A stretch of 64,000 nucleotides of DNA from a virus. Where the stretch lies: IMG/VR virus record IMGVR_UViG_3300045988_072631, one strand, 5' to 3'. Position numbers and translations under genes: made by a program. Below are positions 23,571-45,015 of this stretch, piece after piece (position 1 is the stretch's first letter; every line of letters begins with the position of its first letter). Below the pieces are notes generated by a model that saw only the letters and a program-made list of their open reading frames with translations, ran no database searches and was not told where the DNA came from.

Positions 23571-23614
23571 GCAGTCAGTGGTTTATGGAGGTTCGATTCC
23601 TCCGGCTGCTTTTT
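23571..23614 (+). terminator. tRNA-like minihelix (acceptor stem + T-arm) acting as an intrinsic terminator
   Basis: GCAGTC...GGAGG-TTCGATT-CCTCC-GGCTGC followed by T5. No D or anticodon arms. Confidence 0.5.
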
Positions 23615-23666
23615 CAGTGGGATAGGGTAGCTACCGAAAGGCGAGACGACAGTCGCTTTCCCACTG
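23615..23666 (+). ncRNA. conserved three-way-junction RNA motif (copy X) in a 5' UTR
   Basis: P1 CAGTGGGA/TCCCACTG encloses TAGGGTAGCTACCGAAAG plus the hairpin GCGA..TCGC. Same architecture as 55917-55966 (-). Confidence 0.45.
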
Positions 23667-23729
23667 ATTCAACTATTATTGTCGCAAGTGCATGCAGGAG
23701 CACACATATCTGATGTCGGAGGTATAAGA

Positions 23730-24734: not shown

Positions 24735-24832
24735 GAATCATACCGGGTGCCGACGACGTAGGCATCCGCTAACCAGAAAAAGATACTGGCAGACTGCCGG
24801 AGGGTACTTCTGCCGAGAACGGAGGTGCCTGA

Positions 24833-25246
24833 ATGGCAGAAAAAAAAATAAAAATTGGTTCTGGCATGTCCTCTTTCCTAAACGTGAACGGGGTAGACTT
24901 CCCGTGCCCTAGGGTGGGATTTTCGTATATTATCAGCACAACGGTAAATGCCGGGCGAAATGCGAACAATGCAGTCATTGGCCAGAGAGTAGGAAGAGAC
25001 ATTTTTAAGCTGAACAATATGGAATGGGCAATGCTGGATGCAGCTAAGTGGCAGAGCATGTTGGATGCAATTAAACCATATTTTGTACCTGTAACATTTG
25101 AGGACTACAGAACAGGGAGACCAATCACCATTACAATGTACCCGGGGGACAGAACGGGGGTTCCACTCTATTCAGACCCGGATTCTCATATTGTTACAAA
25201 GTATGAAAACTGCAAATTCAATCTGATTGATGCCGGTTGGGAGTGA
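24833..25246 (+). CDS. distal tail protein (Dit)-like
   Basis: 137 aa, directly upstream of the large tail tip protein. Confidence 0.5.
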   Translation: MAEKKIKIGSGMSSFLNVNGVDFPCPRVGFSYIISTTVNAGRNANNAVIGQRVGRDIFKLNNMEWAMLDAAKWQSMLDAIKPYFVPVTFEDYRTGRPITITMYPGDRTGVPLYSDPDSHIVTKYENCKFNLIDAGWE

Positions 25247-25252
25247 TAGATC

Positions 25253-27556: not shown

Positions 27557-27557
27557 T

Positions 27558-27965
27558 ATGGCGTGGATTCAGCCTAAAACAAACTGGGCGGTTGGAGACC
27601 GGTTTAATATATCGGATTACAACAGGATTAAAGGAAATCTTAATTTTTTACACGAACGAGCGGAAGAGCTTTACCCGGATTTCAATATTATCAATATGGG
27701 AGCGGATAAAGTGTATGCCGACTATCCATATGCCCGTGAAATCAATAATTTTGAGAAGAACCTGGAAACAATCAACGATAATGTTTATACGCAAGACCTG
27801 GGCGTTACAGCAACTTTCTACAGCAATGGAGCTTTTATCCAGTGGGACGAACTGAACCGGATAGAATCAGCTATGCTGAGCATCTATGAAATGTTGAACA
27901 GGCAAGAAGCAGGATTGCCAGTGCTATCGTTCAGGCTGGGTGGAATGAAAGGAGTGAGAGTATAA
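27558..27965 (+). CDS. tail-associated hypothetical protein
   Basis: ORF track; coupled (taATATG). Confidence 0.5.
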   Translation: MAWIQPKTNWAVGDRFNISDYNRIKGNLNFLHERAEELYPDFNIINMGADKVYADYPYAREINNFEKNLETINDNVYTQDLGVTATFYSNGAFIQWDELNRIESAMLSIYEMLNRQEAGLPVLSFRLGGMKGVRV

Positions 27966-28421
27966 ATGGCATTAAAGACGGATTACAAAGATGATATCAT
28001 TGCAACGGGTACGCAGAGAAAGTATACACAGACAACTAATTCTGATGGTACAGTGTCGTTCACAGATTCTACAGAGTATCAGCAGACCGGTGACACCTTT
28101 GGAGCAAAGGATATTAACGCAACCAACGTTGAAGTGAATAAACTGGAAGGAGTTAAGTCGGTGACTCTGAAAGCAAACGAATGGACAGGCTCGGCAGCTC
28201 CATATCAGCAGATTGTGACGGTTGATGGAATTAGATCGACGGATTCTCCGGTGCTTGTCAGCTTGCTGGCAGACGGGGCATCTGAGGCAACACAGAAAGC
28301 ATACAGTAAGGCATTCGGAATTGTATCTTCTGGAACTGGTTCAACTTCTGATGGCAGTGTTACATTCAAAGTATACAAAAAGCCAGCCACAGACATTACG
28401 GTTGGTTTGAAAGGAGTCTAG
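27966..28421 (+). CDS. tail-associated hypothetical protein
   Basis: ORF track. Confidence 0.5.
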   Translation: MALKTDYKDDIIATGTQRKYTQTTNSDGTVSFTDSTEYQQTGDTFGAKDINATNVEVNKLEGVKSVTLKANEWTGSAAPYQQIVTVDGIRSTDSPVLVSLLADGASEATQKAYSKAFGIVSSGTGSTSDGSVTFKVYKKPATDITVGLKGV

Positions 28422-28424
28422 GTT

Positions 28425-29276
28425 ATGGGAACTATTTTAATGCCGGGCGGCGGTGGCGGAATTGATCTGGATGTTGTTACTGCTGCGGCTGGAGATGTTT
28501 TAAATGGAAAAGTAATTGTTGGTGCAGATGGAGAGCCATTGACAGGAACGCTTGCTTTAACAGGAAATGCAGGTACGGGAGATGTACTGTCCGGGAAGAC
28601 GTTCTACAATGCCGATGCAAAAACAAAGCGCACCGGAACAATGACAAATCAGGGTGCAAAAACAGCGTCTCTTAACTGCGGGGGAAGTTATACGATTCCT
28701 GCTGGTTATCACAATGGATCTGGAAAAGTATCAGCAAAAAGTTTGTCTTCTCAGACCAGAGGAACTGCGTCTGCCGGAAATATTTTAACAGGTAAGACCG
28801 CTTGGGTTAATGGAAACATGATAACTGGCGCAATGAGGGATTATTCAAATGTTGAGCAAACAGCCACTATAGAAACGTCAGATCAAACAAAATCATGCTA
28901 CGGAAATGATGGAACTAATATAAAAGTTGTTCCTGCAATTGGTTATTGGGGTTCATGGACATTCAATAAGTGCATAAGTATTCCATTAAACAGCATTATA
29001 AAAATTGCTAGCGGTGATTGGACTGCTGGAACAGCAGGTTGGTGCGGATTCAAACCAGATATTGTATTTTTCCGAGGAAATGTGTCCGGTTCACAATTTC
29101 CAATAGGAATATATTGTAACGTAAATGGAATGTATATTAATGTGGTAGAAGGACAGTCGCAATCACACTATGGAGACAATATTTATGTAACTGATACTGG
29201 ATGGGCATATCATAACAGCATGGCATATATTGATGGAAAAGCTATTAAGTATGTTTGCTTAAAAATTACACCATAA
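28425..29276 (+). CDS. tail fibre / receptor-binding protein
   Basis: Gly-rich N-terminus and three GDVLxGKxF...TGTM repeats. Last gene of the structural block. Confidence 0.6.
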   Translation: MGTILMPGGGGGIDLDVVTAAAGDVLNGKVIVGADGEPLTGTLALTGNAGTGDVLSGKTFYNADAKTKRTGTMTNQGAKTASLNCGGSYTIPAGYHNGSGKVSAKSLSSQTRGTASAGNILTGKTAWVNGNMITGAMRDYSNVEQTATIETSDQTKSCYGNDGTNIKVVPAIGYWGSWTFNKCISIPLNSIIKIASGDWTAGTAGWCGFKPDIVFFRGNVSGSQFPIGIYCNVNGMYINVVEGQSQSHYGDNIYVTDTGWAYHNSMAYIDGKAIKYVCLKITP

Positions 29277-29283
29277 ATCAGCG

Positions 29284-30042
29284 TTACAACACATACGCCA
29301 CATAACCAATAACATCATCAACATCACCTTCTGAGCATCGGGATCTGTTATCTCTGATGCTCACATATTCAAATTTTCCATTTCCGCAAGGATTTCTGCG
29401 GGCAATGAACACATTGTCCCCGTAAATGATGATGATATCCTCGGTAGGACGTGGATTGCGGTCATTGGCAATCAGGAGAATATCATATGGAGAATAGTGC
29501 GGCATATAGTTGTCAACCGATGTTTTTATACCCATAAAAATTTGCGGCTTGATATTTTGCGGAATATCAGTGATATCAAGGAATTCAAACTCGCCGGAAA
29601 TATGTAACGTGCCGTCTGGATGTTCCTCCAGATTCATCACAGGGACAGTTTTTCTCCCTTGCCGGAAACCGCCCAAAGAAAGATCATATTGCCTGCGGAC
29701 GAACCAGCGCACAAAATACTGATAGTGTTCAGGCATTTCACGGAACATAGAAATGCAGTCCATGTCCTCTTCGGAAATAGTGTCAAGTCCGATTAGCTCA
29801 TCCACTGTAACACCTATAGCCTTAGCTAAGAGGGCGGCAGTGGACAGCTTGCAATCTTTGGAGTTCTGGTACAACAGATTTTTAAGCGTGTCAAATGAAA
29901 TACCGGCTGATTCAGCAAGTTCATGAATGGTAATATCTGAATACTTTAAGCAAATATCCAAATTGTGACGCAAATTATCTGTAAAGACAGTGTTTTCTCT
30001 GGTAAAATGTCCAGATAATTTATACAAATTTTCTTTTTTCAT
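29284..30042 (-). CDS. XRE-HTH regulator with a degenerate S24 (LexA/CI-like) C-terminal domain
   Basis: N-terminal HTH ITIHELAESAGISFDTLKNLL. The C-terminus aligns to the S24 fold, but VDNYMP replaces GDSMxP and IARR replaces the K-containing motif. Confidence 0.6.
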   Translation of the reverse strand: MKKENLYKLSGHFTRENTVFTDNLRHNLDICLKYSDITIHELAESAGISFDTLKNLLYQNSKDCKLSTAALLAKAIGVTVDELIGLDTISEEDMDCISMFREMPEHYQYFVRWFVRRQYDLSLGGFRQGRKTVPVMNLEEHPDGTLHISGEFEFLDITDIPQNIKPQIFMGIKTSVDNYMPHYSPYDILLIANDRNPRPTEDIIIIYGDNVFIARRNPCGNGKFEYVSIRDNRSRCSEGDVDDVIGYVAYVL

Positions 30043-30241
30043 AGTGTTCCGTCCTCCCTCTTTAAAGTGTTAAAATATGATTGTCTCAAAAAAGAGACAT
30101 CAACTTCCGGCTGGGGGAACACTAATCCGCATGGTGTTTCCCCATACGAATAGCTTACTTTTTTCGGGAAAATCTGTCAATCTTTTCGCATACATAACCT
30201 TTCTGCAAAATCCGACACGATTCGACAAGATTTGATTGATA

Positions 30242-30271
30242 TTGACAAAATAAGAACATATGTTCTATAAT
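30242..30271 (+). promoter_or_regulatory. promoter TTGACA-18-TATAAT containing a Cheo-type LexA box
   Basis: AGAACATATGTTCT (30253-30266) has the form GAAC-N4-GTTC and is a perfect palindrome lying between -35 and -10. Confidence 0.65.
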
Positions 30272-30322
30272 TATGTTAAGCTACTTTACGGCACATGCGG
30301 ATTTCTGATGGGAGGGTTTTTA

Positions 30323-30451
30323 GTGAATGAGAAGGAAGAGTACAGGAAACAGATCATCGAAATGATTGAGAATGTAAAAAGAAAAGATATTCTATTATAC
30401 ATTTTTAATATTACAAAGGATATTATCAAGGAGGATAAAGAAAATGAGTGA
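30323..30451 (+). CDS. small acidic/basic helical protein (42 aa)
   Basis: GTG after GGGAGGG. Internal start of track ORF 30260-30451. Confidence 0.4.
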   Translation: MNEKEEYRKQIIEMIENVKRKDILLYIFNITKDIIKEDKENE

Positions 30452-30701
30452 AAATTTATCAAATATTGTAATAAAGTCAAACGAAGAGAAGGGATATACA
30501 GAGATTTTTGTTGATGGGCATAAATTAAAAGGGGTTCGTAGTTTTGAGCTTAAAGAAGATGTCTCTGGCGCACCAACATTAACCGTAGACCTAAATGCCA
30601 TAAATTTAAGCGTGGACTGCTTGTGTTTTATGCGTCATAAAGGCTACGGTGATATGAAGATAACATTCATTGATGATGTTGGACACGAAATGGATATATA
30701 G
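30444..30701 (+). CDS. small protein, paralog of 32903-33178
   Basis: GYTEIFVDGHKLKGVRSFELKEDVSGAPTLTVDLNA versus GIFTEIRIGGRKIDGVRSYELKQKAGELPVLTIDLNA. Confidence 0.55.
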   Translation: MSENLSNIVIKSNEEKGYTEIFVDGHKLKGVRSFELKEDVSGAPTLTVDLNAINLSVDCLCFMRHKGYGDMKITFIDDVGHEMDI

Positions 30702-30706
30702 TACCA

Positions 30707-30913
30707 TTAGATATTATGTGGTGCTTTTTCCATGATAGGACATTTATTTGCCCGTTTGCATCCATAGGATTTTTGGTAAGAGCAGTCAAAGCGTTCTCTG
30801 GAAAATTTTTCTTTTGTTTCCAGAGTATTGTCACCACAATATGTTACTGAAACGGAGTAGTCTTTCTGTTGCGTAGGACAGAAACCTGTGAAGTCTTTAG
30901 TAATATAACTCAT
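30707..30913 (-). CDS. Cys-rich hypothetical protein (68 aa)
   Basis: ORF track; co-oriented with and downstream of the repressor gene. Confidence 0.45.
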   Translation of the reverse strand: MSYITKDFTGFCPTQQKDYSVSVTYCGDNTLETKEKFSRERFDCSYQKSYGCKRANKCPIMEKAPHNI

Positions 30914-30915
30914 AT

Positions 30916-31257
30916 TTACACCTCACTAAGCACGTCGATAGTATCAATGACGTGCTTTTTCTTTTTATCTGAAAGTTTCATGTATTTTTCCAAGGCGTTT
31001 AACAATTCTTTATCGTTTCTAATGGAAATCCACAGATCAGCTTGCGTTTGTAGCGGAATTTCTTTCTCTTCACCGTTTACAAGATAATCAACGGTTACAT
31101 CTAAATAGTCCGCTAATTTTTGCATTGTTTCTGTTTTTGGATTCGTTTTTCCACGTTTCCAATCGGAAAGAGTCATGTTTGAAACGCCGGTTGCTCTTGA
31201 TACATCGGCATTCTTTAGACCTTTTTCGTCTAGCAATTTCTGGTAATGTTCGTACAT
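30916..31257 (-). CDS. CI-like XRE-family repressor
   Basis: ATG after GAGGTG. LKNADVSRATGVSNMTLSDWKRGKTNP HTH. Divergent from the cro-like gene. Confidence 0.7.
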   Translation of the reverse strand: MYEHYQKLLDEKGLKNADVSRATGVSNMTLSDWKRGKTNPKTETMQKLADYLDVTVDYLVNGEEKEIPLQTQADLWISIRNDKELLNALEKYMKLSDKKKKHVIDTIDVLSEV

Positions 31258-31266
31258 AAAAATCAC

Positions 31267-31455
31267 CTCAAAGAAATTACGGAAAACTTTAAAAATGTTA
31301 TTGACTTTTAAAGAAACCCGTAATATACTAGACCTAGATTAAGGAAAGCCTTAAAACCTAGGTTATATTGGTTAGTTATATATTGTTCTGGTAGATAGTA
31401 TTATAACGGTTTTCCTTAATAATTTCAATAGTTTTTAAGGAAAGGAGTATGAATT
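31267..31455. promoter_or_regulatory. divergent switch region with TTAAGGAAA operator repeats
   Basis: + promoter TTGACT-17-TATACT (31301-31329). TTAAGGAAA at 31339 and 31435, inverted copy at 31410. Palindrome AACCTAGGTT. Confidence 0.55.
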
Positions 31456-31668
31456 TTGAAGCAGGAAAGAAAATATGGAAGTTCTTATGGAAAATTTTGC
31501 GAGATTATCAGCAAAAAAGGGATTACTCCATATCGGGTAGCAACAGATTTAGGCATTTCTCCAATGCTGCTTTCTGATTGGAAAAATGACAAAAGCAAAC
31601 CTAAGTTAGACACTATGGTAATGATAGCTGACTACCTTGGTACGGACGTAAAGCAGTTTGTTGATTGA
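31456..31668 (+). CDS. Cro-like XRE-family HTH protein
   Basis: TTG start 8 nt after AAAGGAG. ITPYRVATDLGISPMLLSDWKNDKSKP. Confidence 0.65.
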   Translation: MKQERKYGSSYGKFCEIISKKGITPYRVATDLGISPMLLSDWKNDKSKPKLDTMVMIADYLGTDVKQFVD

Positions 31669-31699
31669 ACCGGTTTAGTAGAAAGGAGGAATAAGGAAA

Positions 31700-31861
31700 A
31701 TGCAACATGACATTGATGGGTTAAAAGAAGTCCTCTACCAGCAAATTGAGAAACTGGCAGAGGAAAGCAACAGTAATTCTGCTGATGCGGAAACCAAAAT
31801 TCGCATTGCGGGCGAGATTTGCCGTATCGCAGATACGATTATCAGGATTGATGCCGATTAA
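31700..31861 (+). CDS. hypothetical protein (53 aa)
   Basis: ATG after AAAGGAGGA. Below the track cutoff. Confidence 0.45.
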   Translation: MQHDIDGLKEVLYQQIEKLAEESNSNSADAETKIRIAGEICRIADTIIRIDAD

Positions 31862-32082
31862 GTGCGGATTCGATACTGGATATATTTCTTTCTATGGACT
31901 TAAGCTCTACGAGATTTGATACGCTATGTAGACTGCTTAATTTATGCATAGCACAACATTTATACTTGGAAATATACCACGCACAGTCATGTACACAATC
32001 CTTGAAATCGTTAAGAGGACATTTACTTATCTTTACCACCTCCTTTATAGGAGAGTATATCACAGAAAGAAAGTGAGAGGAA

Positions 32083-32880
32083 ATGAACGAATTACAAATT
32101 TTCAAAAATTCAGAGTTCGGCGAAATTCGAACTGTGGTAGATAAGGTAAATAATGTGTGGTTCTGCGGAAACGATGTGGCAAAAGCACTTGGATACGAAA
32201 GAGGAGCAAAAGCAATTTCGGATCACGTAGACACGGAAGATAGACATGAAGTCCCAATTCAGGATTCCATCGGAAGAATGCAGAAGACAGCATTTATAAG
32301 CGAAAGCGGATTATATGCGCTTGTACTTTCTAGCAAATTGCAGGATGCAAAAAAATTCAAACGATGGGTCACATCCGAAGTGCTCCCGTCCATCCGCAAG
32401 AATGGCGGCTACATTGCCGGACAGGAAAACATGACGGACGATGAACTTCTGGCAAATGCAATTCTGGTGGCGCAGAAAAAGATTGCTGAACGGGACAAGA
32501 AGATACAGGAACTTGAAACCGAAGTTGTGGAAATGAATAACACCATTTCGGAAATGCAACCGAAAGTGAACTACGTTGATTTGATCTTGAAAAGCAAGTC
32601 AGCGGTTCTGGTAACGCAGATTGCGCAGGACTATGGGATGTCGGCGAAAGCATTCAACAAGGTGCTGAAAGATTTAGGAGTCCAGCATAAAGTCGGTGGT
32701 CAGTGGATTTTGTACCGGAAGTATCAAGGACTTGGATACGTCCACAGCAAAACGATTGATATTACCAGATCAAGCGGACAGGCAGATGTTGTAATGCAGA
32801 CAGAGTGGACGCAGAAGGGCAGATTGTTTCTGTATGAACTTCTGAAAAAGAACGGAACATATCCGCTGATTGAAAGGTAG
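32083..32880 (+). CDS. antirepressor (Bro-N + KilA-C-like)
   Basis: [35 protein letters not shown] ... [17 protein letters not shown], with a C-terminal DNA-binding-like half. Confidence 0.75.
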
Positions 32881-32902
32881 TCAACAAAAGGAGTGGAGAA
32901 AA

Positions 32903-33178
32903 ATGGCAAAAATCGAAATAAGACAGGTTGATGGGGAAAAAGGAATATTCACCGAAATTCGTATTGGTGGTCGCAAAATTGATGGTGTCAGAAGTTACGA
33001 ATTAAAGCAAAAAGCTGGAGAGCTTCCTGTGTTGACAATTGACTTGAACGCTTTTGAGATCGCGACAGACTTGAGGGTGCTACTTGTTAATCAGGACACT
33101 GCTGGAGAGATTAAAAGCATCAGATTCAAAGATGGGTATGAGGTTGAAATTGGCTCTCCTGTTACAGAGAGCCAGTAA
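32903..33178 (+). CDS. small protein, paralog of 30444-30701
   Basis: ATG after AAAGGAGTGGAG. See the paralog alignment at 30444-30701. Confidence 0.55.
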   Translation: MAKIEIRQVDGEKGIFTEIRIGGRKIDGVRSYELKQKAGELPVLTIDLNAFEIATDLRVLLVNQDTAGEIKSIRFKDGYEVEIGSPVTESQ

Positions 33179-34496: not shown

Positions 34497-34756
34497 AAGT
34501 GGATTTACTGGAGGATGCGTACATATGCATCAGCAAAGACGAGTATATCAATTTGGTAGATCAGGAAACTAGAGTGAATGTTCTGGTTGGTTTGATAGCT
34601 GCCGGATGCAAGCCGAGCGGAGAGGAAATACTTCGTATCCTTGGAACGGAACTGGCAATCGTAACCGCAAACGAATTAAGGGAGAAAAGAAATGGAACTG
34701 AAACTTTTACGAATGAAGCTGAAAAACTTCACAAAATATACCGAAAAAGAGATTGA
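34493..34756 (+). CDS. hypothetical protein (87 aa)
   Basis: ORF track. Overlaps the ATPase start by 65 nt. Confidence 0.45.
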   Translation: MKVDLLEDAYICISKDEYINLVDQETRVNVLVGLIAAGCKPSGEEILRILGTELAIVTANELREKRNGTETFTNEAEKLHKIYRKRD

Positions 34757-36614
34757 TTTCTCTAATATCACTAAAATTTCCGGTATGAACGGAGCTGGAA
34801 AGTCCAGCATTGCGACCGCATATACTTGGGTACTGTTTGATTGCGACTACAATTTGAAAAGCAGTCCGGCAGTCCGTAGGGAAGTTGACGGGGAACCGGT
34901 AATGGATTCTGATGTAGAAGTAACACTGATATTCGATCTGGATGGAAAAGAAATTTCCATGCGAAAGGTACAGCACCGGACGATCAGCAAGGACGGAGCA
35001 TCCTACAAAGATGATAATAAATATTTTATCAATGATGTTCCAAAGAAAAAAGCAGAATTTGAATCGTATCTTGGAATTGATATGGGACTTTTGAAAAGTT
35101 GTTCTAATCCAGAGGCTTTTCTTACTAAAAAAGCAGATGAAATGAGAGCATATTTGTTTTCACTGTCAGAATCTTTTTCAGATATGCATGTTTGCTGGGA
35201 GAACGAAAGCCTTCATGGATTGGCAGAAAAGCTGACAGATTATTCAGTTGAAGAGTTATCTGCCATGAATAAGAAAAAGAAAACGGATATTGAGAAAGAG
35301 CTTCCGGTTCTGGACGGACATATTAAGGAGAAAGAACGAGACATCAAGTTAAAATCCGACATGGATGTGTCTGATCTGGAATTGCAGAGAAATACATTGA
35401 AAGAACAGATTGCAGAGAATCTGAAAAAACAGGCTGATAGTCAGAACATTTTGAAAGATTATGAATCTGCTACTGCCGGAATTATGGAGCTGAAATTCAA
35501 ACTGCCAGATATGCAGAATCAGGCGAATAATGTTCTATCAGAAAAAGTCCGGAAGATCAGAAGTGAAATAGCGGATAAAACAGCCGAAAAGCGGAGATTA
35601 GAAATTGAGTCTGACAATTACAGCCGGAAAGTAGAAATATTGACAGATTCAATTAAGAGATTGACCGAAGATAAGCAGAAAATGGCTGAACTTTGGAAGC
35701 AGGAGAAAGCAAGAGTTTTTGACGAAAACAGTACCGTATGCGTGTACTGCGGGCAGGAATATCCAGAGGACAAGAAAGAACAGCTCCGGTCAGAGTTCGC
35801 AGTGCGTAAAGAAGCGGAATTGAAGCGCATCACCGACAAAGGAATGTCTCTGAAATCTTCTATCGAGGAAAATGAAAAACATATTAAGACTTTGAATACT
35901 TTTTTTGAGCATAACGCAGAATGTATTCGGAATATTGAAGAAGAAATTCGACTTCTCAGAGAAAAAGAAGCGGAAATTCCGATTGCTGCGGATATTTCTG
36001 GTAATGAAGAATATAAGAAAATTCAGAACCAGATTACTGAAAAGGGAAAGTACCTGGAACAGTTTGGAAACGCTTCTGATTTGAAAGAACAGCTTAAACA
36101 GGAAGAATCGGAGTTGAACGAACAACTGAGAGCCTGCGAACAGAAAATTGCACAGTCGGATACCTCCGCAGAAGAAGAAAGACTGGAAGAACTGAAAGCA
36201 AGAAAGCTTGACCTGGGGCAGAAAAAGACGGACGCAGAGCATATACTTGACCTTCTGGCAGAACTGGAAAAGAAGAAAAATGAGCTGCTTTCCGATGAAA
36301 TCAACAGCCATTTTGGACTGGTTAAGTGGAAGTTGTTCGAGAATGCAAAGAATGGAAATTACAAGTCCGTATGCATTCCACAGGTTGACGAAAAGTCCAT
36401 TCTGACCACCATCAGCAATAAGGGGAACCGGATTCTCGGAAAACTGGATATTTGCCGGAGTATCCAGAAAATCGAGGGAATTTCAGTGCCGATCTGGTTG
36501 GATGATTGTGAGTCGTTGGACTCTGAAAACCAGAAGAAGGTTATTGATATGGTGGACGGTCAGCTGATTATGCTGATCGTAAATGATGGCAAAGAATTAA
36601 AAGTGGAGGGGTAA
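34692..36614 (+). CDS. SbcC/Rad50-like AAA ATPase
   Basis: Walker A GMNGAGKSS, long coiled coil, C-terminal WLDDCESLD. Confidence 0.7.
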   Translation: MELKLLRMKLKNFTKYTEKEIDFSNITKISGMNGAGKSSIATAYTWVLFDCDYNLKSSPAVRREVDGEPVMDSDVEVTLIFDLDGKEISMRKVQHRTISKDGASYKDDNKYFINDVPKKKAEFESYLGIDMGLLKSCSNPEAFLTKKADEMRAYLFSLSESFSDMHVCWENESLHGLAEKLTDYSVEELSAMNKKKKTDIEKELPVLDGHIKEKERDIKLKSDMDVSDLELQRNTLKEQIAENLKKQADSQNILKDYESATAGIMELKFKLPDMQNQANNVLSEKVRKIRSEIADKTAEKRRLEIESDNYSRKVEILTDSIKRLTEDKQKMAELWKQEKARVFDENSTVCVYCGQEYPEDKKEQLRSEFAVRKEAELKRITDKGMSLKSSIEENEKHIKTLNTFFEHNAECIRNIEEEIRLLREKEAEIPIAADISGNEEYKKIQNQITEKGKYLEQFGNASDLKEQLKQEESELNEQLRACEQKIAQSDTSAEEERLEELKARKLDLGQKKTDAEHILDLLAELEKKKNELLSDEINSHFGLVKWKLFENAKNGNYKSVCIPQVDEKSILTTISNKGNRILGKLDICRSIQKIEGISVPIWLDDCESLDSENQKKVIDMVDGQLIMLIVNDGKELKVEG

Positions 36615-36616
36615 AA

Positions 36617-37216
36617 ATGAGTAAAGCATTGGATATGGCAAGAGAACTGGTTAAGAAGCTGGAAGAAGAGGAAAAACAGCCAAAAGTGCAGCTTTTAACT
36701 TTGAATCCGGGAAATGTATTCAAAATTGGAGAGCATGATTTTATTGTACTGATGCAGTGCAGAGAGGAAACAGCAGTAATTTCCAAAGGATTCATGGCTG
36801 AAAATGTGAAATTTGATGAGGATTCGAGAAACTATAAAGAGTCAAATCTGAAAAAGGTTATCGAGAATCTGATCCAGCCGGTTATTGAGAAGGAAGTCGG
36901 ATCAAAAAACCTTATTGAGCATGAGGTTGATCTGACAAGTGTAGATATGCAGGATGAGTTCGGAGGATTCAAGTGCAAAGTCAGACCAATCACATTCGAA
37001 GAAGCCAGACTGTACAACAATTTACTGGTTAATAAAAACCTTAATGATTGGTGGTGGACATGCACACCTTGGAGCACAGAAGACAGAGGATGGAAATATT
37101 CAATTGCCGTTGTTGCTCCGTCCGGCCTTATCAACGACAACTATTTCAGCAACTGCTACGGTGTTCGCCCGTTTTGTATCTTAAAATCTAATATCTTTGT
37201 ATCGAAGGGAGAATGA
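36617..37216 (+). CDS. DGR target protein 1 (C-type-lectin-fold variable C-terminus)
   Basis: C-terminus WWWTCTPWS...VVAPSGLINDNYFSNCYGVRPFCI contains VR1. Confidence 0.8.
   Translation: MSKALDMARELVKKLEEEEKQPKVQLLTLNPGNVFKIGEHDFIVLMQCREETAVISKGFMAENVKFDEDSRNYKESNLKKVIENLIQPVIEKEVGSKNLIEHEVDLTSVDMQDEFGGFKCKVRPITFEEARLYNNLLVNKNLNDWWWTCTPWSTEDRGWKYSIAVVAPSGLINDNYFSNCYGVRPFCILKSNIFVSKGE
37107..37180 (+). repeat. DGR variable region VR1
   Basis: The 74 nt align to TR with 11 differences, 10 of them at TR adenines. Confidence 0.85.
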
Positions 37217-37857
37217 AAATGGGATTAACAATGAAAGCATTGCAGGAACAGATTGATGTGTTAAAAAAAGAAATGGAAGAGCTGAGAAGCGGCCAGAAAG
37301 TAGAATGCAACAAGAAATTTTCCAAATTTCTTACTATTGGTGAAACATTTGAACTGGCAGGAGTTAATTGGAAGATTATTGATATCACGAGTGATGGTTA
37401 TGTTTGTCTGTCTGATTCTATAGGTGAAATGAAATTCAGCTCTGAAAACAATGACTGGAGAACCAGCAATCTTCGAAAATATTTGAATGAAGAATTTTTG
37501 AAAAAGATGGAATCAGAAATCGGGACAGGTAATCTGATCAAATTTGAGAGAAGCCTTCTTTCTTTGGACGGTCAGACGGAGTACGGAACATGTGATGATA
37601 AAGTTTCACTTTTGACAGTGGATGAGTACCGGAAATACAGAAAGCTCATTCCAAATACAGACGATTGGTTCTGGTTGATTTCTCCGTGGAGTACACCTTG
37701 CAATGGCTTCAACAACAGTGTTACCGTTGTTGCTCCGTCCGGCAATATGCCTTCAACTACGGCGGTTACTACGGCCGCTGCGGTGTTCGCCCGTTCTGTA
37801 TCTTTTCTTCTGCAATCTTTGAATCAGAGGAAAAATAAATGCCAGAAACAGAACTGA
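37213..37857 (+). CDS. DGR target protein 2, frame-shifted inside its variable region
   Basis: Paralog of target 1 (WFWLISPWS...VVAPSG). A 5-nt duplication in VR2 shifts the frame. The ancestral frame ends at TAA 37836-37838. Confidence 0.7.
   Translation: MKMGLTMKALQEQIDVLKKEMEELRSGQKVECNKKFSKFLTIGETFELAGVNWKIIDITSDGYVCLSDSIGEMKFSSENNDWRTSNLRKYLNEEFLKKMESEIGTGNLIKFERSLLSLDGQTEYGTCDDKVSLLTVDEYRKYRKLIPNTDDWFWLISPWSTPCNGFNNSVTVVAPSGNMPSTTAVTTAAAVFARSVSFLLQSLNQRKNKCQKQN
37724..37802 (+). repeat. DGR variable region VR2 (79 nt, carries a 5-nt duplication)
   Basis: Positions 1-25 correspond to TR 1-25. Positions 26-79 correspond to TR 21-74 with adenine-specific changes. Confidence 0.8.
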
Positions 37858-38210
37858 AAGTAATTCTGAAAGCAAAAGATCTGGCAGCGCATACTTTGAG
37901 AGTGACATCGAATTGCAACCGGTATCCTAAAAAGTATAGATTTTCATTGGTGGACAAGATGCAGAATAAAGCACTTGAAATTTATGAATATTTGTACGAA
38001 GCCAACCGGACAGATTTGAAAAATTTTAAAAAGGAGCGATCAGAGTTACAGACAAAAGCAATCACAAATTGCGATGAATTGTTGTTTTATATCGAATTAT
38101 CAATGAAACTTAATATTATCAGCATGGAAAGCACGGAGTATTGGTCGAAAATGGTGTCCGATATAAAACATATGGCGATTGCATGGAGAACCAAAGATAA
38201 AGGACGATAA
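37839..38210 (+). CDS. avd: accessory variability determinant (Avd, four-helix bundle)
   Basis: 123 aa, basic and helical, lying between the targets and TR/RT. Confidence 0.75.
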   Translation: MPETELKVILKAKDLAAHTLRVTSNCNRYPKKYRFSLVDKMQNKALEIYEYLYEANRTDLKNFKKERSELQTKAITNCDELLFYIELSMKLNIISMESTEYWSKMVSDIKHMAIAWRTKDKGR

Positions 38211-38235
38211 AATTATAGGTTATGCGCTGTTTAAA

Positions 38236-38309
38236 CCGTTGTTGCTCCATCCGGCAATATCAACAACAACAATTACAACAACAGCAACGGTGTTCGCCCA
38301 TTCTGTATC
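38236..38309 (+). repeat. DGR template repeat (TR)
   Basis: A-rich AAC-codon tract (..AATATCAACAACAACAATTACAACAACAGCAAC..) matching both VRs. Confidence 0.85.
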
Positions 38310-38407
38310 AAACAGGCAGTTAGAGTAGGCAATAAGCCGAAATCAGAGAAAGATACAAAAAAGTGCATGACCTTCTCGAATAGGGTAAATACAAAGGAAT
38401 TTTTACA

Positions 38408-39430
38408 ATGGATAAAGATGTTATATGCAGCTATGAAAATCTGTATAAGGCATACCGGAAGGCTAAAACTGGAAAAGGTTTTAATGGAAGCTGTGCAAAA
38501 TTTCAGACTATGAATCTGGAAGGACTTCACTTATTGAAAGAACAACTGGAAAATCAGACATACCGGTTGAATCCGTACAACGAATTTAAGGTTTACGAAC
38601 CGAAAGAAAGAGTGATTAAATCGTGTTCTTTCAAAGACAAAATCGTCCAACATTGCTTATGCGACGAGATTTTGCATCCTGCATTAAGGGATCGCTTTAT
38701 TAGTACGAATTATGCAGGGCAGCAGGGGAAAGGTACTCATTTTGGAATGGATTGCTTGAAAGAGCAAATGATTGATTTTTATGAAGAACATAGACTTGAT
38801 GGCTGGATTCTTAAATGTGACATTAAAAAGTTTTTCTACCAGATAGACCATGAGATCCTGAAAAGAATTGTTGACTATCACTTTCCAGATGAGTACACCA
38901 AATGGTTGAATCACCTGTTTATTGAAAGCACAGAAGGTCTGGGGCTTCCACTCGGGAATCAGGTAGCTCAGGTATATGCACTTCTGATGCTAGATGGTAT
39001 GGATCACTTCATTACCGAAACACTTGGAATATCCAGATATGGAAGATACATGGATGATTTCTATTTGATCTATCCAGATAAAGAGTATTTGATGTTTTGT
39101 CTAAAACAGATCCGAGAATTTCTTGGAAGGCTGGAACTTGAATTGAATGGAAAGACACAGATTGTCCCATTCAAATGCGGAATAGCATTTACAGGTTTTC
39201 ATCACTACGTAACATTGGAAGGAAAATACATAAGAAAATTGAGTGGAACAAACAAACGAAAGATGCGTAAGAAAATCAGGAAATGGTCAGAACTGGTTAG
39301 ATCCGGGAAAATGACGGAAGAAAAATTTTTTGAGAAGTACAACGCTTGGAAAAACCATGCATTACATGGGAATTGCATTAAGTTGTGCCACTCGATGGAT
39401 TTATATGTAAAAGAATTATTGGAGGAATAA
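38408..39430 (+). CDS. DGR reverse transcriptase
   Basis: 340 aa. CDIKKFFYQIDH, LPLGNQVAQ, RYMDDFYLIY (YMDD). Confidence 0.85.
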   Translation: MDKDVICSYENLYKAYRKAKTGKGFNGSCAKFQTMNLEGLHLLKEQLENQTYRLNPYNEFKVYEPKERVIKSCSFKDKIVQHCLCDEILHPALRDRFISTNYAGQQGKGTHFGMDCLKEQMIDFYEEHRLDGWILKCDIKKFFYQIDHEILKRIVDYHFPDEYTKWLNHLFIESTEGLGLPLGNQVAQVYALLMLDGMDHFITETLGISRYGRYMDDFYLIYPDKEYLMFCLKQIREFLGRLELELNGKTQIVPFKCGIAFTGFHHYVTLEGKYIRKLSGTNKRKMRKKIRKWSELVRSGKMTEEKFFEKYNAWKNHALHGNCIKLCHSMDLYVKELLEE

Positions 39431-39436
39431 GTGATT

Positions 39437-40183
39437 ATGGCAGATACACAGGTAGCAGTAACAGAGGAAAAGAGAGAAGTATCAAGAAATAAAGTGACGG
39501 ATTACAGTCTTGGAATTTTTGGAACGTCAGATAACTTCATTATGGCTATGCAGATGGCAAAAGCATTGTCAAGTTCAACGATAGTGCCACAAACGTTCCA
39601 GAGAAATGAAGCGAATTGTCTGATTGCCATTGAGCAGGCACAGAGATTGCACGTAAGTCCGCTTATGGTAATGCAGAACCTTAATGTAATCCAGGGAAGA
39701 CCGTCATGGAGTTCCAAGTTTTTGATTGCTGCGATCAATAACAGCGGAAATTTTGATACGGAATTACAGTTCGAGGAGAAGAAGGACAAGGACGGAAAGC
39801 CATTTTCTTGCACAGCATGGGTAATGAAGAATGGTAGAAAAGTTGAAGGTATGACGGTTGACATGGATATGGCGAGAGCAGAGGGATGGCTTGGAAAAAA
39901 CGGAAGTAAATGGAAAACCATGCCACAGCTGATGCTTCGTTACAGAGCAGCATCTTTCTTTTCCAGTCTTAATTGCCCGGAACTGACTATGGGTCTGTAC
40001 ACAAAAGAAGAGATTATTGACGGTGATTTCAAAGAATACAAGATCGAAGATGTACAGGAGCAGGCTCATGAAGAGATCGTTAAGAATGCAAATTCTATGG
40101 ATTTTGAACCGGAAGAAACTGCTGGAACAGTGACTGAACCGGACGGGCAGCAGGCAATGCCGGAGTTCATGCAGGAGGGATAA
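39437..40183 (+). CDS. recT: RecT-family single-strand annealing recombinase
   Basis: MQMAKALSSSTIVPQTFQ...NVIQGRPSWSSKF pattern. The alternative GTG 39431 is also possible. Confidence 0.75.
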   Translation: MADTQVAVTEEKREVSRNKVTDYSLGIFGTSDNFIMAMQMAKALSSSTIVPQTFQRNEANCLIAIEQAQRLHVSPLMVMQNLNVIQGRPSWSSKFLIAAINNSGNFDTELQFEEKKDKDGKPFSCTAWVMKNGRKVEGMTVDMDMARAEGWLGKNGSKWKTMPQLMLRYRAASFFSSLNCPELTMGLYTKEEIIDGDFKEYKIEDVQEQAHEEIVKNANSMDFEPEETAGTVTEPDGQQAMPEFMQEG

Positions 40184-41500: not shown

Positions 41501-41938
41501 ATCAATAAAGTAATTTTAACAGGTAGATTCGCGAAAGACCCTGACGTTAGATACTCAAACGGAGAAAAGACAACTGCGGTTGCGAGATTTACTCTGGCAG
41601 TAGAACGAAGATTCAAAGGTGATGGAAATCCGACGGCTGATTTTATCAACTGTGTAGCATTCGGAAAATCCGGGGAGTTTATCGAAAAATACTTCCGCAA
41701 AGGTATGAAAGCTAATATTTGTGGACGGATTCAGACCGGCTCTTATACGAATAAGGACGGAAACAAGATCTACACCACAGATGTTCTGGTGGAAGAAATT
41801 GAGTTTGGTGAAAGCAAAAGCAGCAATCAGCAGAGCGCAGCTCCGGCTAATCCAAGTAATGCAGTTAATCCAATGACTGATGAAAATGGTTTCATGAACA
41901 TCCCAGATGGAATTGATGAAGAGTTACCGTTTGCGTGA
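41501..41938 (+). CDS. ssb: single-stranded DNA-binding protein (no canonical start codon)
   Basis: INKVILTGRFAKDPDVRYS...DEELPFA*. The frame opens after TGA 41495-41497. The first plausible codon is ATC 41501, 8 nt after AAAGGTGG. Confidence 0.7.
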   Translation: MNKVILTGRFAKDPDVRYSNGEKTTAVARFTLAVERRFKGDGNPTADFINCVAFGKSGEFIEKYFRKGMKANICGRIQTGSYTNKDGNKIYTTDVLVEEIEFGESKSSNQQSAAPANPSNAVNPMTDENGFMNIPDGIDEELPFA

Positions 41939-41954
41939 TAAAGAGGGTGAGAAA

Positions 41955-42659
41955 ATGAAAAAATTTGAACTTACAGCAGAATGCGTAACAAATATTTTTG
42001 GAAAAAAATTATTCAGAATCAAAGCACTGGTAGCATTTGAAAATGTGAAAGAAGGAGATCTGGGCGGATTCGTGGAGAAAGAATCTAACCTCGCTAATAG
42101 CGGTAAAGCATGGGTTTGCGGTGATGCACAGGTCTACGGTGAAGCACAGGTCTCTGGTAATGCACAGGTTTGCGGTGATGCACAGGTCTACGGTGAAGCA
42201 CAGGTCTACGGTAATGCACAGGTTTGCGGTAATGCACGGGTCTGCGGTAATGCACGGGTCTACGGTGAAGCATGGGTCTACGATAATGCACGAGTCTACG
42301 ATAATGCACGGGTCTACGGTGAAGCACAGGTCTACGGTGAAGCACAGGTCTACGGTGATGCACAGGTCTACGGTGATGCACAGGTCTACGGTAATGCATG
42401 GGTTTGCGGTAATGCACGGGTCTCCGGTGATCTGGATTATGCAATTGTTGGAGGTTTTGGAAGTGAGCAGCGGACAACTACATTTTTCCGGCAGAAGGAC
42501 GGAACAGTAGGAGTGAGGTGCGGATGCTTTTACGGAACACTGGAAGAATTCAGGGGAAAAGTTAAGAAAACGCACAAAGACAGCAAATACGGACAGGAAT
42601 ACCTGATGATTGCAGATCTGATGGAATTACATTTTGCAGGAGGAAAAGAGAATGAATGA
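41955..42659 (+). CDS. hexapeptide-repeat (beta-helix-like) protein
   Basis: 18 tandem G[DEN]A[QRW]V[YCS] units followed by a Cys-containing globular C-terminus. Confidence 0.6.
   Translation: MKKFELTAECVTNIFGKKLFRIKALVAFENVKEGDLGGFVEKESNLANSGKAWVCGDAQVYGEAQVSGNAQVCGDAQVYGEAQVYGNAQVCGNARVCGNARVYGEAWVYDNARVYDNARVYGEAQVYGEAQVYGDAQVYGDAQVYGNAWVCGNARVSGDLDYAIVGGFGSEQRTTTFFRQKDGTVGVRCGCFYGTLEEFRGKVKKTHKDSKYGQEYLMIADLMELHFAGGKENE
42102..42425 (+). repeat. 18 tandem 18-bp coding repeats
   Basis: GGTGAWGCACAGGTCTAC-type units. All six frames are open across it. Confidence 0.9.
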
Positions 42660-42897: not shown

Positions 42898-43067
42898 TGG
42901 AAATGATCGAAACAAGCTTAAAGCTGTGCAAAAGCTGTAAATACGGCTTATACAATGGCACGAACGGCGGAGCAATATGCGATTACATAAGCATAACAAA
43001 GCATAGTCGCAAATGTCCGGTAGGGAAGTGCGATAAGTACCAGCCGAGAAAGAGGAAGAAGAAATGA
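42897..43067 (+). CDS. Cys-rich small protein (56 aa)
   Basis: CKSC...C...CPVGKC. taATG and ATGA coupling at the two ends. Confidence 0.45.
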   Translation: MEMIETSLKLCKSCKYGLYNGTNGGAICDYISITKHSRKCPVGKCDKYQPRKRKKK

Positions 43068-43969
43068 GAGTTGCGCTGGTTGATGTAGACGGACATAATT
43101 TCCCGAGCTTACCGCTTATGAAACTGTCCGCATGGCACAAACAGGACGGCGATACAGTGGAATGGTATGATCCGCTAACTGCTTGGAAGGACCAGCCGGA
43201 TCTTGTGTATATGAGCAAGGTATTTACATTTACACCAGATTATCCGCATCCGGTATCTGGCAGAACAATAGTCAAAGGCGGAACGGGTTATCATTACCCG
43301 GACGGGGGCTTACCGTTACCATTTGGTGTAGAGCATATATATCCAGATTATAGTCTGTATCCAGATCTGTGCAGAGATACAGCATATGGATTCTTAACCA
43401 GAGGATGCCCGCGAGGGTGTGACTTCTGCATCGTCGAGAAGAAAGAAGGAAAATGCTCTACAAAAGTAGCTGATCTATCGGAATTCTGGAACGGTCAGAA
43501 AAATATTGTGCTACTTGACCCGAATATGTTTGCCTGCCGTGAATGGAAAGATTTAAGTCAGCAGCTTATTGATAGCGGCGCATGGGTGGATTTTTCACAA
43601 GGATGTGATATCCGCCTTATGACTGAAGAAAAAGCGGAATACATCCGGCGGATGAAAATTAAGCAGATACATTTTGCTTGGGACAGGTACGAAGACCGGG
43701 AGAAAATAATTACGAAGTTCAAAATGTTCCAGGAGCTTACAGGATGGGGACGCTGGAAAATGACTGTGTATGTTCTGTGCGGATTCAACACAACGATGGA
43801 ACAGGACTTGGAAAGGATCTATACTCTGCGGGATCTTGGATACAGTCCATACGTCATGATCTATGAAAAATACAAATTAAGACGCGGAGACGACTTACTG
43901 CGACTGCAAAGATGGGTAAATTCCAGAGTTACTTTTGCGGCAGTAAAGAGATTTGAAGATTACAAATAA
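43064..43969 (+). CDS. radical SAM protein
   Basis: CPRGCDFC (CX3CX2C) at about aa 115. N-terminal B12-binding-like region. Confidence 0.7.
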   Translation: MRVALVDVDGHNFPSLPLMKLSAWHKQDGDTVEWYDPLTAWKDQPDLVYMSKVFTFTPDYPHPVSGRTIVKGGTGYHYPDGGLPLPFGVEHIYPDYSLYPDLCRDTAYGFLTRGCPRGCDFCIVEKKEGKCSTKVADLSEFWNGQKNIVLLDPNMFACREWKDLSQQLIDSGAWVDFSQGCDIRLMTEEKAEYIRRMKIKQIHFAWDRYEDREKIITKFKMFQELTGWGRWKMTVYVLCGFNTTMEQDLERIYTLRDLGYSPYVMIYEKYKLRRGDDLLRLQRWVNSRVTFAAVKRFEDYK

Positions 43970-44025
43970 CAGAAAGGAGCCGAACCTCCGGCCGGGGTAA
44001 CGATATATCGGGTTCCTTTTGAAAA

Positions 44026-45015
44026 ATGATTCAGATTTTAGAATTGTTCGGCGGTATTGGATCTCCGCGATGCGCCTTGCGCAACCTCGGGATCCCTGTA
44101 AAAGCCATCGACTATGTGGAAATAGATGAAAAGGCAGTCAGAAGCTATAACGCAATGTTTGCCACTGACTTGCCATACAAAACGCAAAGTGTAGTCGGTT
44201 GGAATTTGAAGCCAGATATCCTGATACATGGCAGTCCGTGCCAAGATTTTAGTATTGCCGGTAAACAGAAGGGCGCAGACGAAGGATCAGAAACACGGTC
44301 AAGCCTTATGTGGGAGACAATACACATTTTATTGCAGATGGGTGCATGGAAACCAAGGTATGTCATCTGGGAGAACGTGAAGAACGTGCGGAGCAAGTAC
44401 ATGGTACACAATCACAACAGATATATGTCTGAAATGGAAAAAATGGGATACACCAGTAGCTATGAGCTTCTGGACGCAAGAGATTTCGGACTCCCTCAAG
44501 CAAGACAAAGATATTTCACGGTGTCTGCACTCGGGACGGAATATTTTGATTTTTCTGATCTGATACACACACCAATGCGTAATATAAAAAATTTCCTAGA
44601 AACAGATGTGCCAGACTACTACGTGGTAACACAGCCAAGCATGTTGCGGAGAATAGATGGGTTATCTGACTATGACGGGAGCTTCAAAGGGAGAGTGCCT
44701 GTAATCAGAGATTATGCAATGACAATAACCTGCAAACAGATGCGCAGTCCGAACAGTGGGGTTGTGGATATTGGGAATGGGAAATACAGGTATCTTACAG
44801 AACGGGAGTGTTGGAGAATCCAAGGCTATACCGATGAAGATTTTGAAAATGCAAAAAGAGTGCATCCAGGGAAAGAAAATTGTCTGAACGGTGCACTGTA
44901 TAAGCAGGCTGGAAACAGCATACCTGTCCCGATCTTTGAAAGCCTGTTCCGTAAGATAATTCTCGGAGAAACAGAGAAAATTGAAGATCAGACCGGTCAA
45001 CTCCGGTTCGCGTAA
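44026..45015 (+). CDS. DNA (cytosine-5)-methyltransferase
   Basis: FGGIGS, GSPCQDFS, ENV, QRR/RE motifs, GNSI near the C-terminus. Confidence 0.85.
   Translation: MIQILELFGGIGSPRCALRNLGIPVKAIDYVEIDEKAVRSYNAMFATDLPYKTQSVVGWNLKPDILIHGSPCQDFSIAGKQKGADEGSETRSSLMWETIHILLQMGAWKPRYVIWENVKNVRSKYMVHNHNRYMSEMEKMGYTSSYELLDARDFGLPQARQRYFTVSALGTEYFDFSDLIHTPMRNIKNFLETDVPDYYVVTQPSMLRRIDGLSDYDGSFKGRVPVIRDYAMTITCKQMRSPNSGVVDIGNGKYRYLTERECWRIQGYTDEDFENAKRVHPGKENCLNGALYKQAGNSIPVPIFESLFRKIILGETEKIEDQTGQLRFA

Follow-up and report, generated by a model that had tools for sequence, protein, structure and literature searches.

What does a diversity-generating retroelement (DGR) rewrite when it lies among the recombination genes of a phage, outside the tail module? 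The question is raised by positions 36617-39430 of a 64,000-nt stretch of virus DNA (IMGVR_UViG_3300045988_072631; this whole stretch is called the window). Here the plus-strand open reading frames (ORFs) encode, in order, an SbcC-like ATPase, two targets (T1 and T2), a 123-aa protein and, after a 197-nt gap, a 340-aa reverse transcriptase (RT) followed by RecT. The ORF map, together with Pfam and PHROG matches of both flanking genes, upholds two claims of an initial sequence-only reading of this DNA, namely the order target 1, target 2, avd (accessory variability determinant), template repeat (TR), RT, and the position of this cassette between SbcC-like ATPase and RecT. We consider it very likely (probability of about 0.85) that the cassette is a complete, presently active DGR of a temperate gut Clostridia phage of approximately 60 kb, rewriting two DUF6273 paralogues.

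As judged by its sequence relatives, the RT is of the DGR clade and not a retron, group II or defence enzyme. Its best solved relative in a PDB search, the 328-aa RT chain 8ub7_A, which we take to be the DGR RT of Bordetella phage BPP-1, was matched over the full length with an E value of 2.5e-37, against values of the order of 1e-9 for group II (2e-9) and retron (6e-9) RTs. It also matches PHROG 1423 (9e-104) and Pfam RVT_1, and scores far below every cutoff of the NCBIfam group II, retron and Drt models. The YMDD and LPLGNxxAQ motifs pointed out earlier are both in place, the latter as LPLGNQVAQ, in which the [LIV]GxxxSQ-type motif is present as LGNQVAQ. The 123-aa ORF between targets and RT, previously described as Avd-like, is indeed matched by Avd models of PHROG (3206, "Avd protein of DGR", 1.3e-22), NCBIfam (best match DivGenRetAVD, 4.8e-13, at 49 bits below the 80-bit cutoff) and Pfam (bAvd, 2.6e-5, below cutoff).

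Adenine specificity is evident at three levels of comparison. Within the window, TR and the first variable repeat (VR1) are 74-nt direct repeats with 11 differences, of which 10 fall on TR adenines as originally noticed; given 22 adenines in the TR, 10 or more of 11 differences would fall on A by chance with P = 8e-6, and the sole non-adenine difference is C68->T. In VR2, all 13 differences are at TR adenines (P = 5e-9, with a 5-nt insertion, discussed below, set aside). The variable codons read NINNNNYNNSN in the TR and LINDNYFSNCY in VR1, again as reported. Among close relatives, whose 23 distinct VRs were compared (a TR identical to that of the window is found in contigs L003, L006 and L016), mismatch to TR amounts to 59% at A versus 0.4-4.5% at C, G and T. 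In the wider family (53 loci, 104 TR/VR pairs), 1102 of 1176 mismatches (93.7%) are at TR adenines. The differences are thus biased to A at each level, and not spread evenly over the four bases. TR, VR1 and VR2 are the three copies of the repeat in the 64 kb, over which no third, remote VR of the kind found in phage Toutatis was detected.

The 3' ends of the repeats resemble the initiation of mutagenic homing (IMH) site and its TR counterpart (IMH*). Their 21-mers carry A65 in the TR versus G65 in both VRs, and VR1 differs further at position 68 (C in TR, T in VR1). The A-to-G difference at TR position 65 had been singled out as shared by both VRs and as a possible IMH/IMH* marker. It is indeed common to both, but not alone in this, since A14->G is common as well. 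Adenines outside the AAC/AAT-rich core (TR positions 21-52) are essentially unrandomised in the 23 VRs, with A14 read as G in 21, A65 as G in 18 and A72 kept as A in 22. An IMH boundary at A65 is therefore plausible, although A65 is not a strict discriminator because four related VRs retain it.

The two targets are paralogues, as proposed, with 40% identity over 134 aa (E 3e-30), and on their family matches both are small DUF6273 (PF19789)/phrog_9958 proteins. T1 and the T2 ORF match phrog_9958 at 2e-30 and 7e-42, respectively; on Pfam DUF6273, T1 reaches 21.9 bits, slightly under the cutoff of 23.5, versus 40.9 bits for an intact T2 orthologue, whose match covers 25-169 of 172. The ligand and role of the targets had been called open, a statement that needs qualifying because the family is already published as DGR targets: DUF6273 has been described as a C-type-lectin-like DGR target in gut phages (PMC10743442, PMC11792537, 10.1101/2024.10.15.618418). 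A search with T1 gave 4324 homologues, the family comprising 762 clusters at 50% identity (E <= 1e-3). Among 116 near-identical T1 homologues, entropy is approximately 3 bits at eight of the eleven VR1 codons (T1 aa 171-181), lower at 172, 177 and 180; outside these codons it does not exceed about 1.5 bits, the maximum being at residue 49.

The N-termini of both targets are charged and helical, with no hydrophobic signal and no virion anchor, in agreement with the initial description. The AlphaFold2 (AF2) model of T1 (pLDDT 75, pTM 0.72, 147-sequence alignment) shows an N-terminal helix (residues 2-19) and a domain of mixed alpha/beta type, and is of low confidence in the VR loop; when only 48 sequences were aligned pLDDT was 42, and it improved only after 120 distant homologues had been added. 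Foldseek searches against BFVD returned other predicted DUF6273 proteins of gut phage metagenome-assembled genomes only (E 1e-4 to 4e-3, TM score approximately 0.5). No Ig or Fn3 domain was found in T1 (199 aa) or T2 (204 aa) by Pfam and PHROG scans, which places both outside the tentaclins, and of phrog_10993 ("Hoc-like") only the lectin-like part is matched. Some small DUF6273 proteins among the nd12-like homologues (P0241, P0253, P0265, P0313) carry an N-terminal DUF3310 segment, and others a Dam-like or Hoc-like extension; clusters of these homologues at 90% identity have up to 23,439 members, pointing to extreme hypervariation. A "SaV-like" label considered for the DUF3310 segment was dropped, as PHROGs places the segment within "nucleotide kinase" families.

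The RNA around the TR was compared by aligning the interval from the avd stop to the RT start over 55 loci, and scoring pairing against slid partners and 500 shuffles. A long-range helix, formed between the segment just after the avd stop and the spacer, encloses the TR and 52 nt of spacer; 9 of its 11 pairs are compensatory and 98.7% of cells are paired. A spacer hairpin, a candidate protein-binding stem-loop, is paired in more than 96% of cells with 2 compensatory pairs, and a short stem-loop further downstream (38375-38385) in 91.7%, with 3 of 4 pairs compensatory. For all helices together 97.2% of cells are paired versus at most 42% with slid partners, and double-change cells number 147 versus 39 in shuffles, none of the 500 shuffles reaching the observed value. 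No Rfam family reached the gathering threshold over the TR-spacer RNA. The layout matches the published cPRT Stop, which in the cryo-EM structure of the BPP-1 RT-Avd-RNA complex comprises an avd:Sp duplex, a stem-loop and A-minor adenosines, and which has been predicted in 207 of 278 DGRs (10.1101/2023.10.23.563531). A GAUACA segment in the spacer is complementary to the UGUAUC at the TR 3' end, with GUGG/CCAC at the corresponding position in another clade of the alignment, and by analogy to the same structure it is a putative template:primer duplex (10.1101/2023.10.23.563531).

With these parts the element probably works as follows. The transcript, which extends from the end of avd over the TR into the spacer, would fold by pairing of the segment after the avd stop with the spacer into a cPRT-Stop-like duplex; the spacer would also pair with the TR 3' end and prime cDNA synthesis there. 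The RT-Avd complex would then copy TR into cDNA, misincorporating opposite adenines, and the cDNA would replace the homologous 3' end of a target gene, so that 11 codons in the C-terminal loop of the two DUF6273 paralogues of about 200 aa, matching the AAC/AAT-rich core, would be rewritten. Each part of the DGR can be given its coordinates, and this holds even for the RNA elements that cryo-EM has defined only recently.

Features of the DGR cassette and its immediate flanks in the window
Feature	Coordinates	Strand	Remarks
SbcC/Rad50-like ATPase, upstream flank	34692..36614	+	Pfam AAA_23 2.5e-15; PHROG 77 (SbcC-like) 1e-52
Target 1 (T1), 199 aa	36617..37216	+	Intact; N-terminal helix, DUF6273-like domain, C-terminal VR1
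VR1, 74 nt	37107..37180	+	11 differences vs TR, 10 at TR adenines; IMH-like 3' end 37160-37180
Target 2 (T2) ORF as it stands	37213..37857	+	Frameshifted within VR2, tail overlapping avd; start 37219 according to gene callers
VR2, 79 nt	37724..37802	+	13 differences vs TR, all adenines, plus 5-nt insertion; IMH-like 3' end 37782-37802
5-nt insertion GCCTT breaking T2 frame	37749..37753	+	Placement ambiguous within 37747-37753, 37747-37752 being equivalent; absent from 15 IMG/VR relatives and from L016 and L018-L021
Native T2 C-terminal frame, ending in GVRPFCIFSSAIFESEEK and stop	37754..37838	+	Now out of frame with N-terminal part
avd (accessory variability determinant), 123 aa	37839..38210	+	PHROG 3206, NCBIfam and Pfam matches
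Long-range duplex, 5' strand, just after avd stop	38217..38228	+	Pairs with 38362-38373
TR, 74 nt, 22 adenines	38236..38309	+	AAC/AAT-rich core at TR positions 21-52
TR 3' end, IMH*-like	38289..38309	+	VR counterparts (IMH-like) listed under VR1 and VR2
Conserved spacer hairpin (GAGUAGGC…GCCGAAAUC)	38323..38344	+	38328-30 with 38336-38, 38323-24 with 38343-44
GAUACA spacer segment	38352..38357	+	4 nt upstream of Sp strand; complementary to UGUAUC (38304-38309)
Long-range duplex, 3' strand	38362..38373	+	Sp strand of cPRT-Stop-like element
Short stem-loop, then A-rich run UAAAUACAAA	38375..38395	+	38375-77 with 38383-85
DGR reverse transcriptase, 340 aa	38408..39430	+	YMDD and LGNQVAQ; PDB 8ub7_A, PHROG 1423, Pfam RVT_1
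RecT-like single-strand annealing protein, downstream flank	39431..40183	+	PHROG 561 1e-72; Pfam RecT

Evidence for present-day activity comes from public assemblies, which provide a natural loss-of-function control for RT-dependent diversification. Consensus contigs were compared with the T1 allele held fixed in each set. In ten contigs from ten samples that share one T1 allele and have lost avd-TR-RT, VR2 is identical in 10/10, whereas eight contigs with readable VR2 that share another T1 allele and keep the cassette have 7 distinct VR2s. The T1 allele of the window itself occurs in six contigs with 6 distinct VR2s, and contigs whose flanks are 99.4-100% identical carry different VR2s. VR2 turnover thus tracks an intact local cassette, being absent from RT-less and present in RT-positive contigs. 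All the refuting conditions set in the sequence-only reading (an RT of retron or group II type, no A-biased variation in populations, differences spread over the four bases) turned out to speak for a DGR, with hypervariation concentrated at the 11 VR codons and RT-dependent turnover of VR2 seen in public contigs and not in reads.

The only RT-positive contigs that share a VR2 are L125 and L127, in which the TR has been overwritten by VR2 over all 74 nt. In both (positions 4118-4191 of each; GCA_003604815.1 QZMB01000138.1 and ENA ERZ27274243), neither the flanks of the TR nor the spacer RNA have changed, which points to VR-to-TR conversion, or to self-homing, that disables the element.

The two targets do not appear to be rewritten at the same pace. 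One and the same T1 allele can be found on 13-20 contigs, against 1-2 for a T2 allele in RT-positive backgrounds, and VR1 has thus been much quieter recently than VR2, although in the sets above VR1 is constant by construction because contigs were chosen for identical T1. On these allele counts VR2 is the hot target and VR1 the recently quiet one. The TR 3' end is mismatched at two positions in VR1 (G65 and T68) and at one in VR2; the asymmetry, between repeats one base apart in their IMH-like 3' ends, is testable. T68 as the sole cause of VR1 quiescence was considered and rejected, as the hot VR2 of the P0043 group also has T68.

When the 7.5-kb region was searched against GenBank phages at the nucleotide level, only two weak fragments matched, and relatives were therefore sought through proteins. 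In all 15 relatives from IMG/VR, as far as the contigs include the flanks, the targets are bordered by the SbcC-like gene and RecT. Both T1 and T2 are present in 13, a single target in L005, and the contig of L008 ends after T1. The full avd-TR-RT segment is kept in only 3 of the 15; the others keep stubs or nothing. Loss of avd-TR-RT is repeated among L001-L015 and L112-L121; the stubs consist of Avd residues 1-21 or 1-31, or RT residues 297-340, one group has a 110-aa ORF in place of the lost segment, and T1 and T2 are kept in all of these relatives but L005.

A scan of species-representative genomes gave 74 loci in Clostridia of gut and rumen, of which the closest (64-69% identity) belong to Lachnospiraceae; one of these is from the isolate Lachnospira intestinalis CLA-AA-H89B (L038). 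Two tandem DUF6273 genes are found in 64 of the 74 loci, Avd in 59 and the RT directly downstream in the same order in 54; two VRs are present in 51 of the 53 loci with a detectable TR. The flanks of the window are seldom conserved, with an SbcC-like gene at 5 loci, RecT within 6 kb at 2 and MBL at 6, which indicates that the cassette rides on many backbones. Recurrent identified flank clusters are Lin1244_N (replication-protein-like), SSB (at 11 loci, among the commonest neighbours), S24 repressor, ParB, DUF3102, PcfJ, ERCC4 and HNH. The occurrence of such a two-target cassette in the early region of many gut Clostridia phages calls into question the default assumption that the target of a phage DGR is a receptor-binding protein.

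What the targets might do has to be considered in this light. Tentatively, we regard T1 and T2 as oligomerising modules which, in common with other DUF6273 targets of DGRs, bind a variable ligand on the bacterial surface or in the environment. We lean to this role because the same domain is found on clearly extracellular architectures, i.e. with Ig chains in tentaclins and with a tail-fibre N-domain in the Pioen target (PMC10743442, PMC11792537). It is rather unlikely, yet kept alive by the lack of any export or anchor feature and by the early-gene context in every lineage examined, that T1 and T2 are instead early cytoplasmic binders, serving, for example, in counter-defence, host takeover or as superinfection-exclusion sensors of the lysogen and not in the virion or in receptor binding, with the DGR retuning their specificity. 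The targets are co-oriented with the early replication/recombination block, with 2 nt from the SbcC-like ATPase stop codon to the T1 start, 1 nt from the RT stop to the RecT start, and no plus-strand terminator-like site detected in 33.2-43 kb (promoter-like sites in the same scan were fewer than in shuffles, and the scan as a whole is uninformative). Their charged, helical N-termini without a hydrophobic signal, and their retention after RT loss, are also in keeping with a cytoplasmic role.

Homologues in other phages likewise have regulators, methylases, ParB, replication or RecT genes as neighbours: FP_Brigit gp06 precedes exonucleases and RecT, FP_Toutatis gp24 has methylases and a replication initiator around it, nd4 tgt2 is beside replication genes, and the nd12-like, L036 and L037 loci show the same early-region pattern. 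Moreover, the identified flank-gene clusters of the 74 loci all consist of early, DNA-metabolism or lysogeny genes and include no structural ones. Nevertheless, the place of a gene in the genome is not the same as its time of expression, and accessory cassettes commonly have their insertion hotspots in early regions (10.1101/2024.10.15.618418). It is tempting to extend this idea to small single-domain DUF6273 proteins in general, as an early, non-virion class of cytoplasmic counter-defence or host-takeover binders or prophage sensors continuously rewritten by DGRs, for which the tandem cassette, present in at least 64 species-level genomes of Clostridia, would be a mobile module. This is a more doubtful proposition still; if true, it would make this the first phage DGR with a demonstrated target that is not an adhesin of the particle surface. 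Cultured lysogens, e.g. of L. intestinalis CLA-AA-H89B, allow tests of the role of the targets.

A different question is whether the placement beside replication and recombination genes could matter in itself, since retrohoming of the BPP-1 DGR in Escherichia coli depends on the direction of replication and is inhibited by ExoI (PMC12875486). Co-expression with DNA replication, and annealing of the SSB/RecT type, might then aid integration of single-stranded cDNA, which would agree with the close spacing of RT and RecT and with SSB as a neighbour at 11 loci. We find this improbable: the RecT and SbcC-like neighbours are retained at few of the 74 loci, as noted above, and in the BPP-1 study the size of lagging-strand gaps was without effect on retrohoming, annealing proteins lying outside its scope (PMC12875486).

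The T2 gene of this genome is broken by the 5-nt insertion in VR2, a feature absent from the sequence-only account. The ORF leaves its frame after ...VVAPSGN, so that the conserved end (...GVRPFCIFSSAIFESEEK), whose stop at 37838 adjoins the avd ATG, is no longer read. In-silico removal of the 5 nt gives a 204-aa protein that is identical outside the VR to the intact orthologue on contig L016. The insertion could have arisen in assembly or sequencing, as an artefact of hypervariability in this region, with T2 really intact, and it is true that VR2 is heterogeneous across samples, that mixed populations can yield a chimeric consensus, and that VR2 is in frame in all other relatives, including five other contigs with the exact T1 of the window (L016, L018-L021) and the IMG/VR relatives in which VR2 was found (74 nt in 12 of 13, 77 nt in one). 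This is, however, very unlikely. The exact frameshifted 212-aa product was called on 7 contigs from two pipelines, in ENA SPAdes-type and in Logan (run ERR3451329) assemblies, and over 8.6 kb no difference separates the window from ENA ERZ826364 NODE_392 (100% identity); the frameshift is therefore treated as a real allele. Indels in VRs do occur, in 9 of the 104 TR/VR pairs of the wider family, 8 of these 9 being multiples of three, and slippage indels in AAC repeats have been described (PMC12875486).

T2 is thus probably non-functional in this genome until a new round of retrohoming restores the frame from the intact TR. The frameshift would have arisen in the last VR2 event or by a later slip, and its repair by re-homing would follow from the proposed mechanism. 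The inserted GCCTT equals VR1 positions 19-23 (37125-37129), and also TR positions 19-23 (GCAAT) with both adenines substituted; slippage during cDNA synthesis and exchange between VRs are candidate sources. Together with the overwritten TR of L125 and L127 described above, elements of this kind display two modes of failure, a frameshifting VR indel and replacement of the TR by its own VR.

That the cassette is a relic which no longer diversifies, or that the RT is a retron, group II or defence enzyme merely lying near a repeat, can be dismissed as extremely improbable: avd-TR-RT is lost or truncated in many relatives and the TR corrupted in two, but RT, Avd, TR and RNA helices are all intact here, VR2 differs among contigs with near-identical flanks and not among RT-less ones, and the retron, group II and Drt models score far under their cutoffs.

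Several points weigh against our interpretation of an active DGR with surface-directed targets. Avd and T1 fall under the curated Pfam and NCBIfam cutoffs. A search of the T1 model against PDB with Foldseek did not find a C-type lectin (best E 1.4), and matches to S100 and other proteins in a PDB profile search with the T1/T2 alignment were rejected as spurious (E >= 0.05); a lectin fold is therefore not claimed from our own data. A surface-binding role fits poorly with the absence of a signal peptide or virion anchor, and with the early-region position in every lineage examined. The quiescence of VR1 is partly an ascertainment effect, polymorphism within samples is not seen directly when contigs are compared, and the 7 frameshifted contigs may stem from one individual or study.

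Elsewhere in the window, structural genes are recognisable at 1.7-20.5 kb (an intein-containing TerL, portal, Ig-domain major capsid protein and tape measure), and no tail-fibre or receptor-binding gene could be named among the genes of the 64 kb. The TerL ORF (1754-4570, plus strand, 938 aa) contains a LAGLIDADG/Hom_end homing-endonuclease segment at approximately residues 377-459, most simply read as an intein. The order of modules is unusual (14015-14728 and 19908-33178), with an Amidase_3-SPOR endolysin directly before the tape-measure gene, and with genes for three BRO/KilAC antirepressors, a Rha-like regulator and a DnaD-like protein scattered beyond it. For a protein of 767 aa (25253-27556), the only match is phrog_13879, of unknown function, and no Pfam or NCBIfam model is hit. 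Located 1.7 kb downstream of RecT, and sharing the early gene block, is a gene for a 250-aa protein (41907-42659, plus strand) built of 17 in-register 18-nt units encoding the hexapeptides GDAQVY/GNARVC (Pfam YdcK beta-solenoid, 1e-20). Further along lie genes for a radical-SAM protein (phrog_9298, 6e-106) and, after it, a DNA methyltransferase (43064-45015, plus strand); a radical-SAM-like protein lies beside the cassette in 3 other loci too. A type II hammerhead ribozyme (60547-60615, minus strand; 54.7 bits, the gathering score being 37) is found where the GC skew reverses its sign and the coding strand switches. Nearby, a perfect 49-nt repeat (61133-61181 and 61407-61455, with a 65% copy at 61070) holds ATAACGCAC motifs and could represent iterons, operators or the remnant of an attachment site.

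Among known DGR targets, Treponema TvpA and Legionella LdtA also have the VR at the C-terminus of a ligand-binding scaffold, with codons of the AAC type. They are, however, surface lipoproteins or secreted proteins with export signals, which T1 and T2 lack. The archetypal element of BPP-1 (mtd-avd-TR-brt) shares with the cassette described here the order target-avd-TR-RT, adenine-specific mutagenesis with AAC-rich codons at the C-terminus of the target, and an upstream:spacer duplex, stem-loop and adenosines as in the cPRT Stop. It differs in its longer TR (134 nt versus 74 nt), in its single target versus two in tandem, and in its location at the end of the tail operon and not in the early region. 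The present targets are single-domain proteins of about 200 aa without the beta-prism/beta-sandwich tail-fibre docking domains of Mtd, IMH and IMH* are here only 1-2 nt apart in sequence, and a GC-rich hairpin 3' of the VRs is not evident.

DUF6273-directed DGRs in gut Clostridia phages, small helix-flanked targets, two VRs served by one TR and targets that outlive the DGR core are already published. Features not encountered in the published accounts compared are the wide occurrence of a cassette with two small targets in tandem, its consistent placement in the early region, a contrast of hot and cold VRs that depends on the RT, the failure modes by frameshift and TR overwriting, and covariation support for a cPRT-Stop-like RNA in the clade. 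T2 is approximately 33% identical to tgt2 of nd4/nd12, a single globular DUF6273 domain between short helices with a VR at the 3' end (Baykov et al. 2023, PMC10743442). There too one TR serves two VRs, and in nd4 tgt2 lies beside replication genes, as here; the second target is a tentaclin with an N-terminal lectin-like domain and Ig domains, in contrast to the small tandem paralogues of the window, from which an Ig-domain target is absent. The "small" targets of Faecalibacterium phages Lelie, Toutatis and CP11 are homologous DUF6273 proteins at about 33% identity, encoded by core genes of the early region (PMC11792537; 10.1101/2024.10.15.618418). In Toutatis the small target lies 17 kb from the TR and the other target is Hoc-like, whereas here both targets are directly upstream of avd. 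The small targets of these phages are retained in genomes without the DGR core (10.1101/2024.10.15.618418), just as targets persist after loss of avd-TR-RT among close relatives of the present phage (L001-L015).

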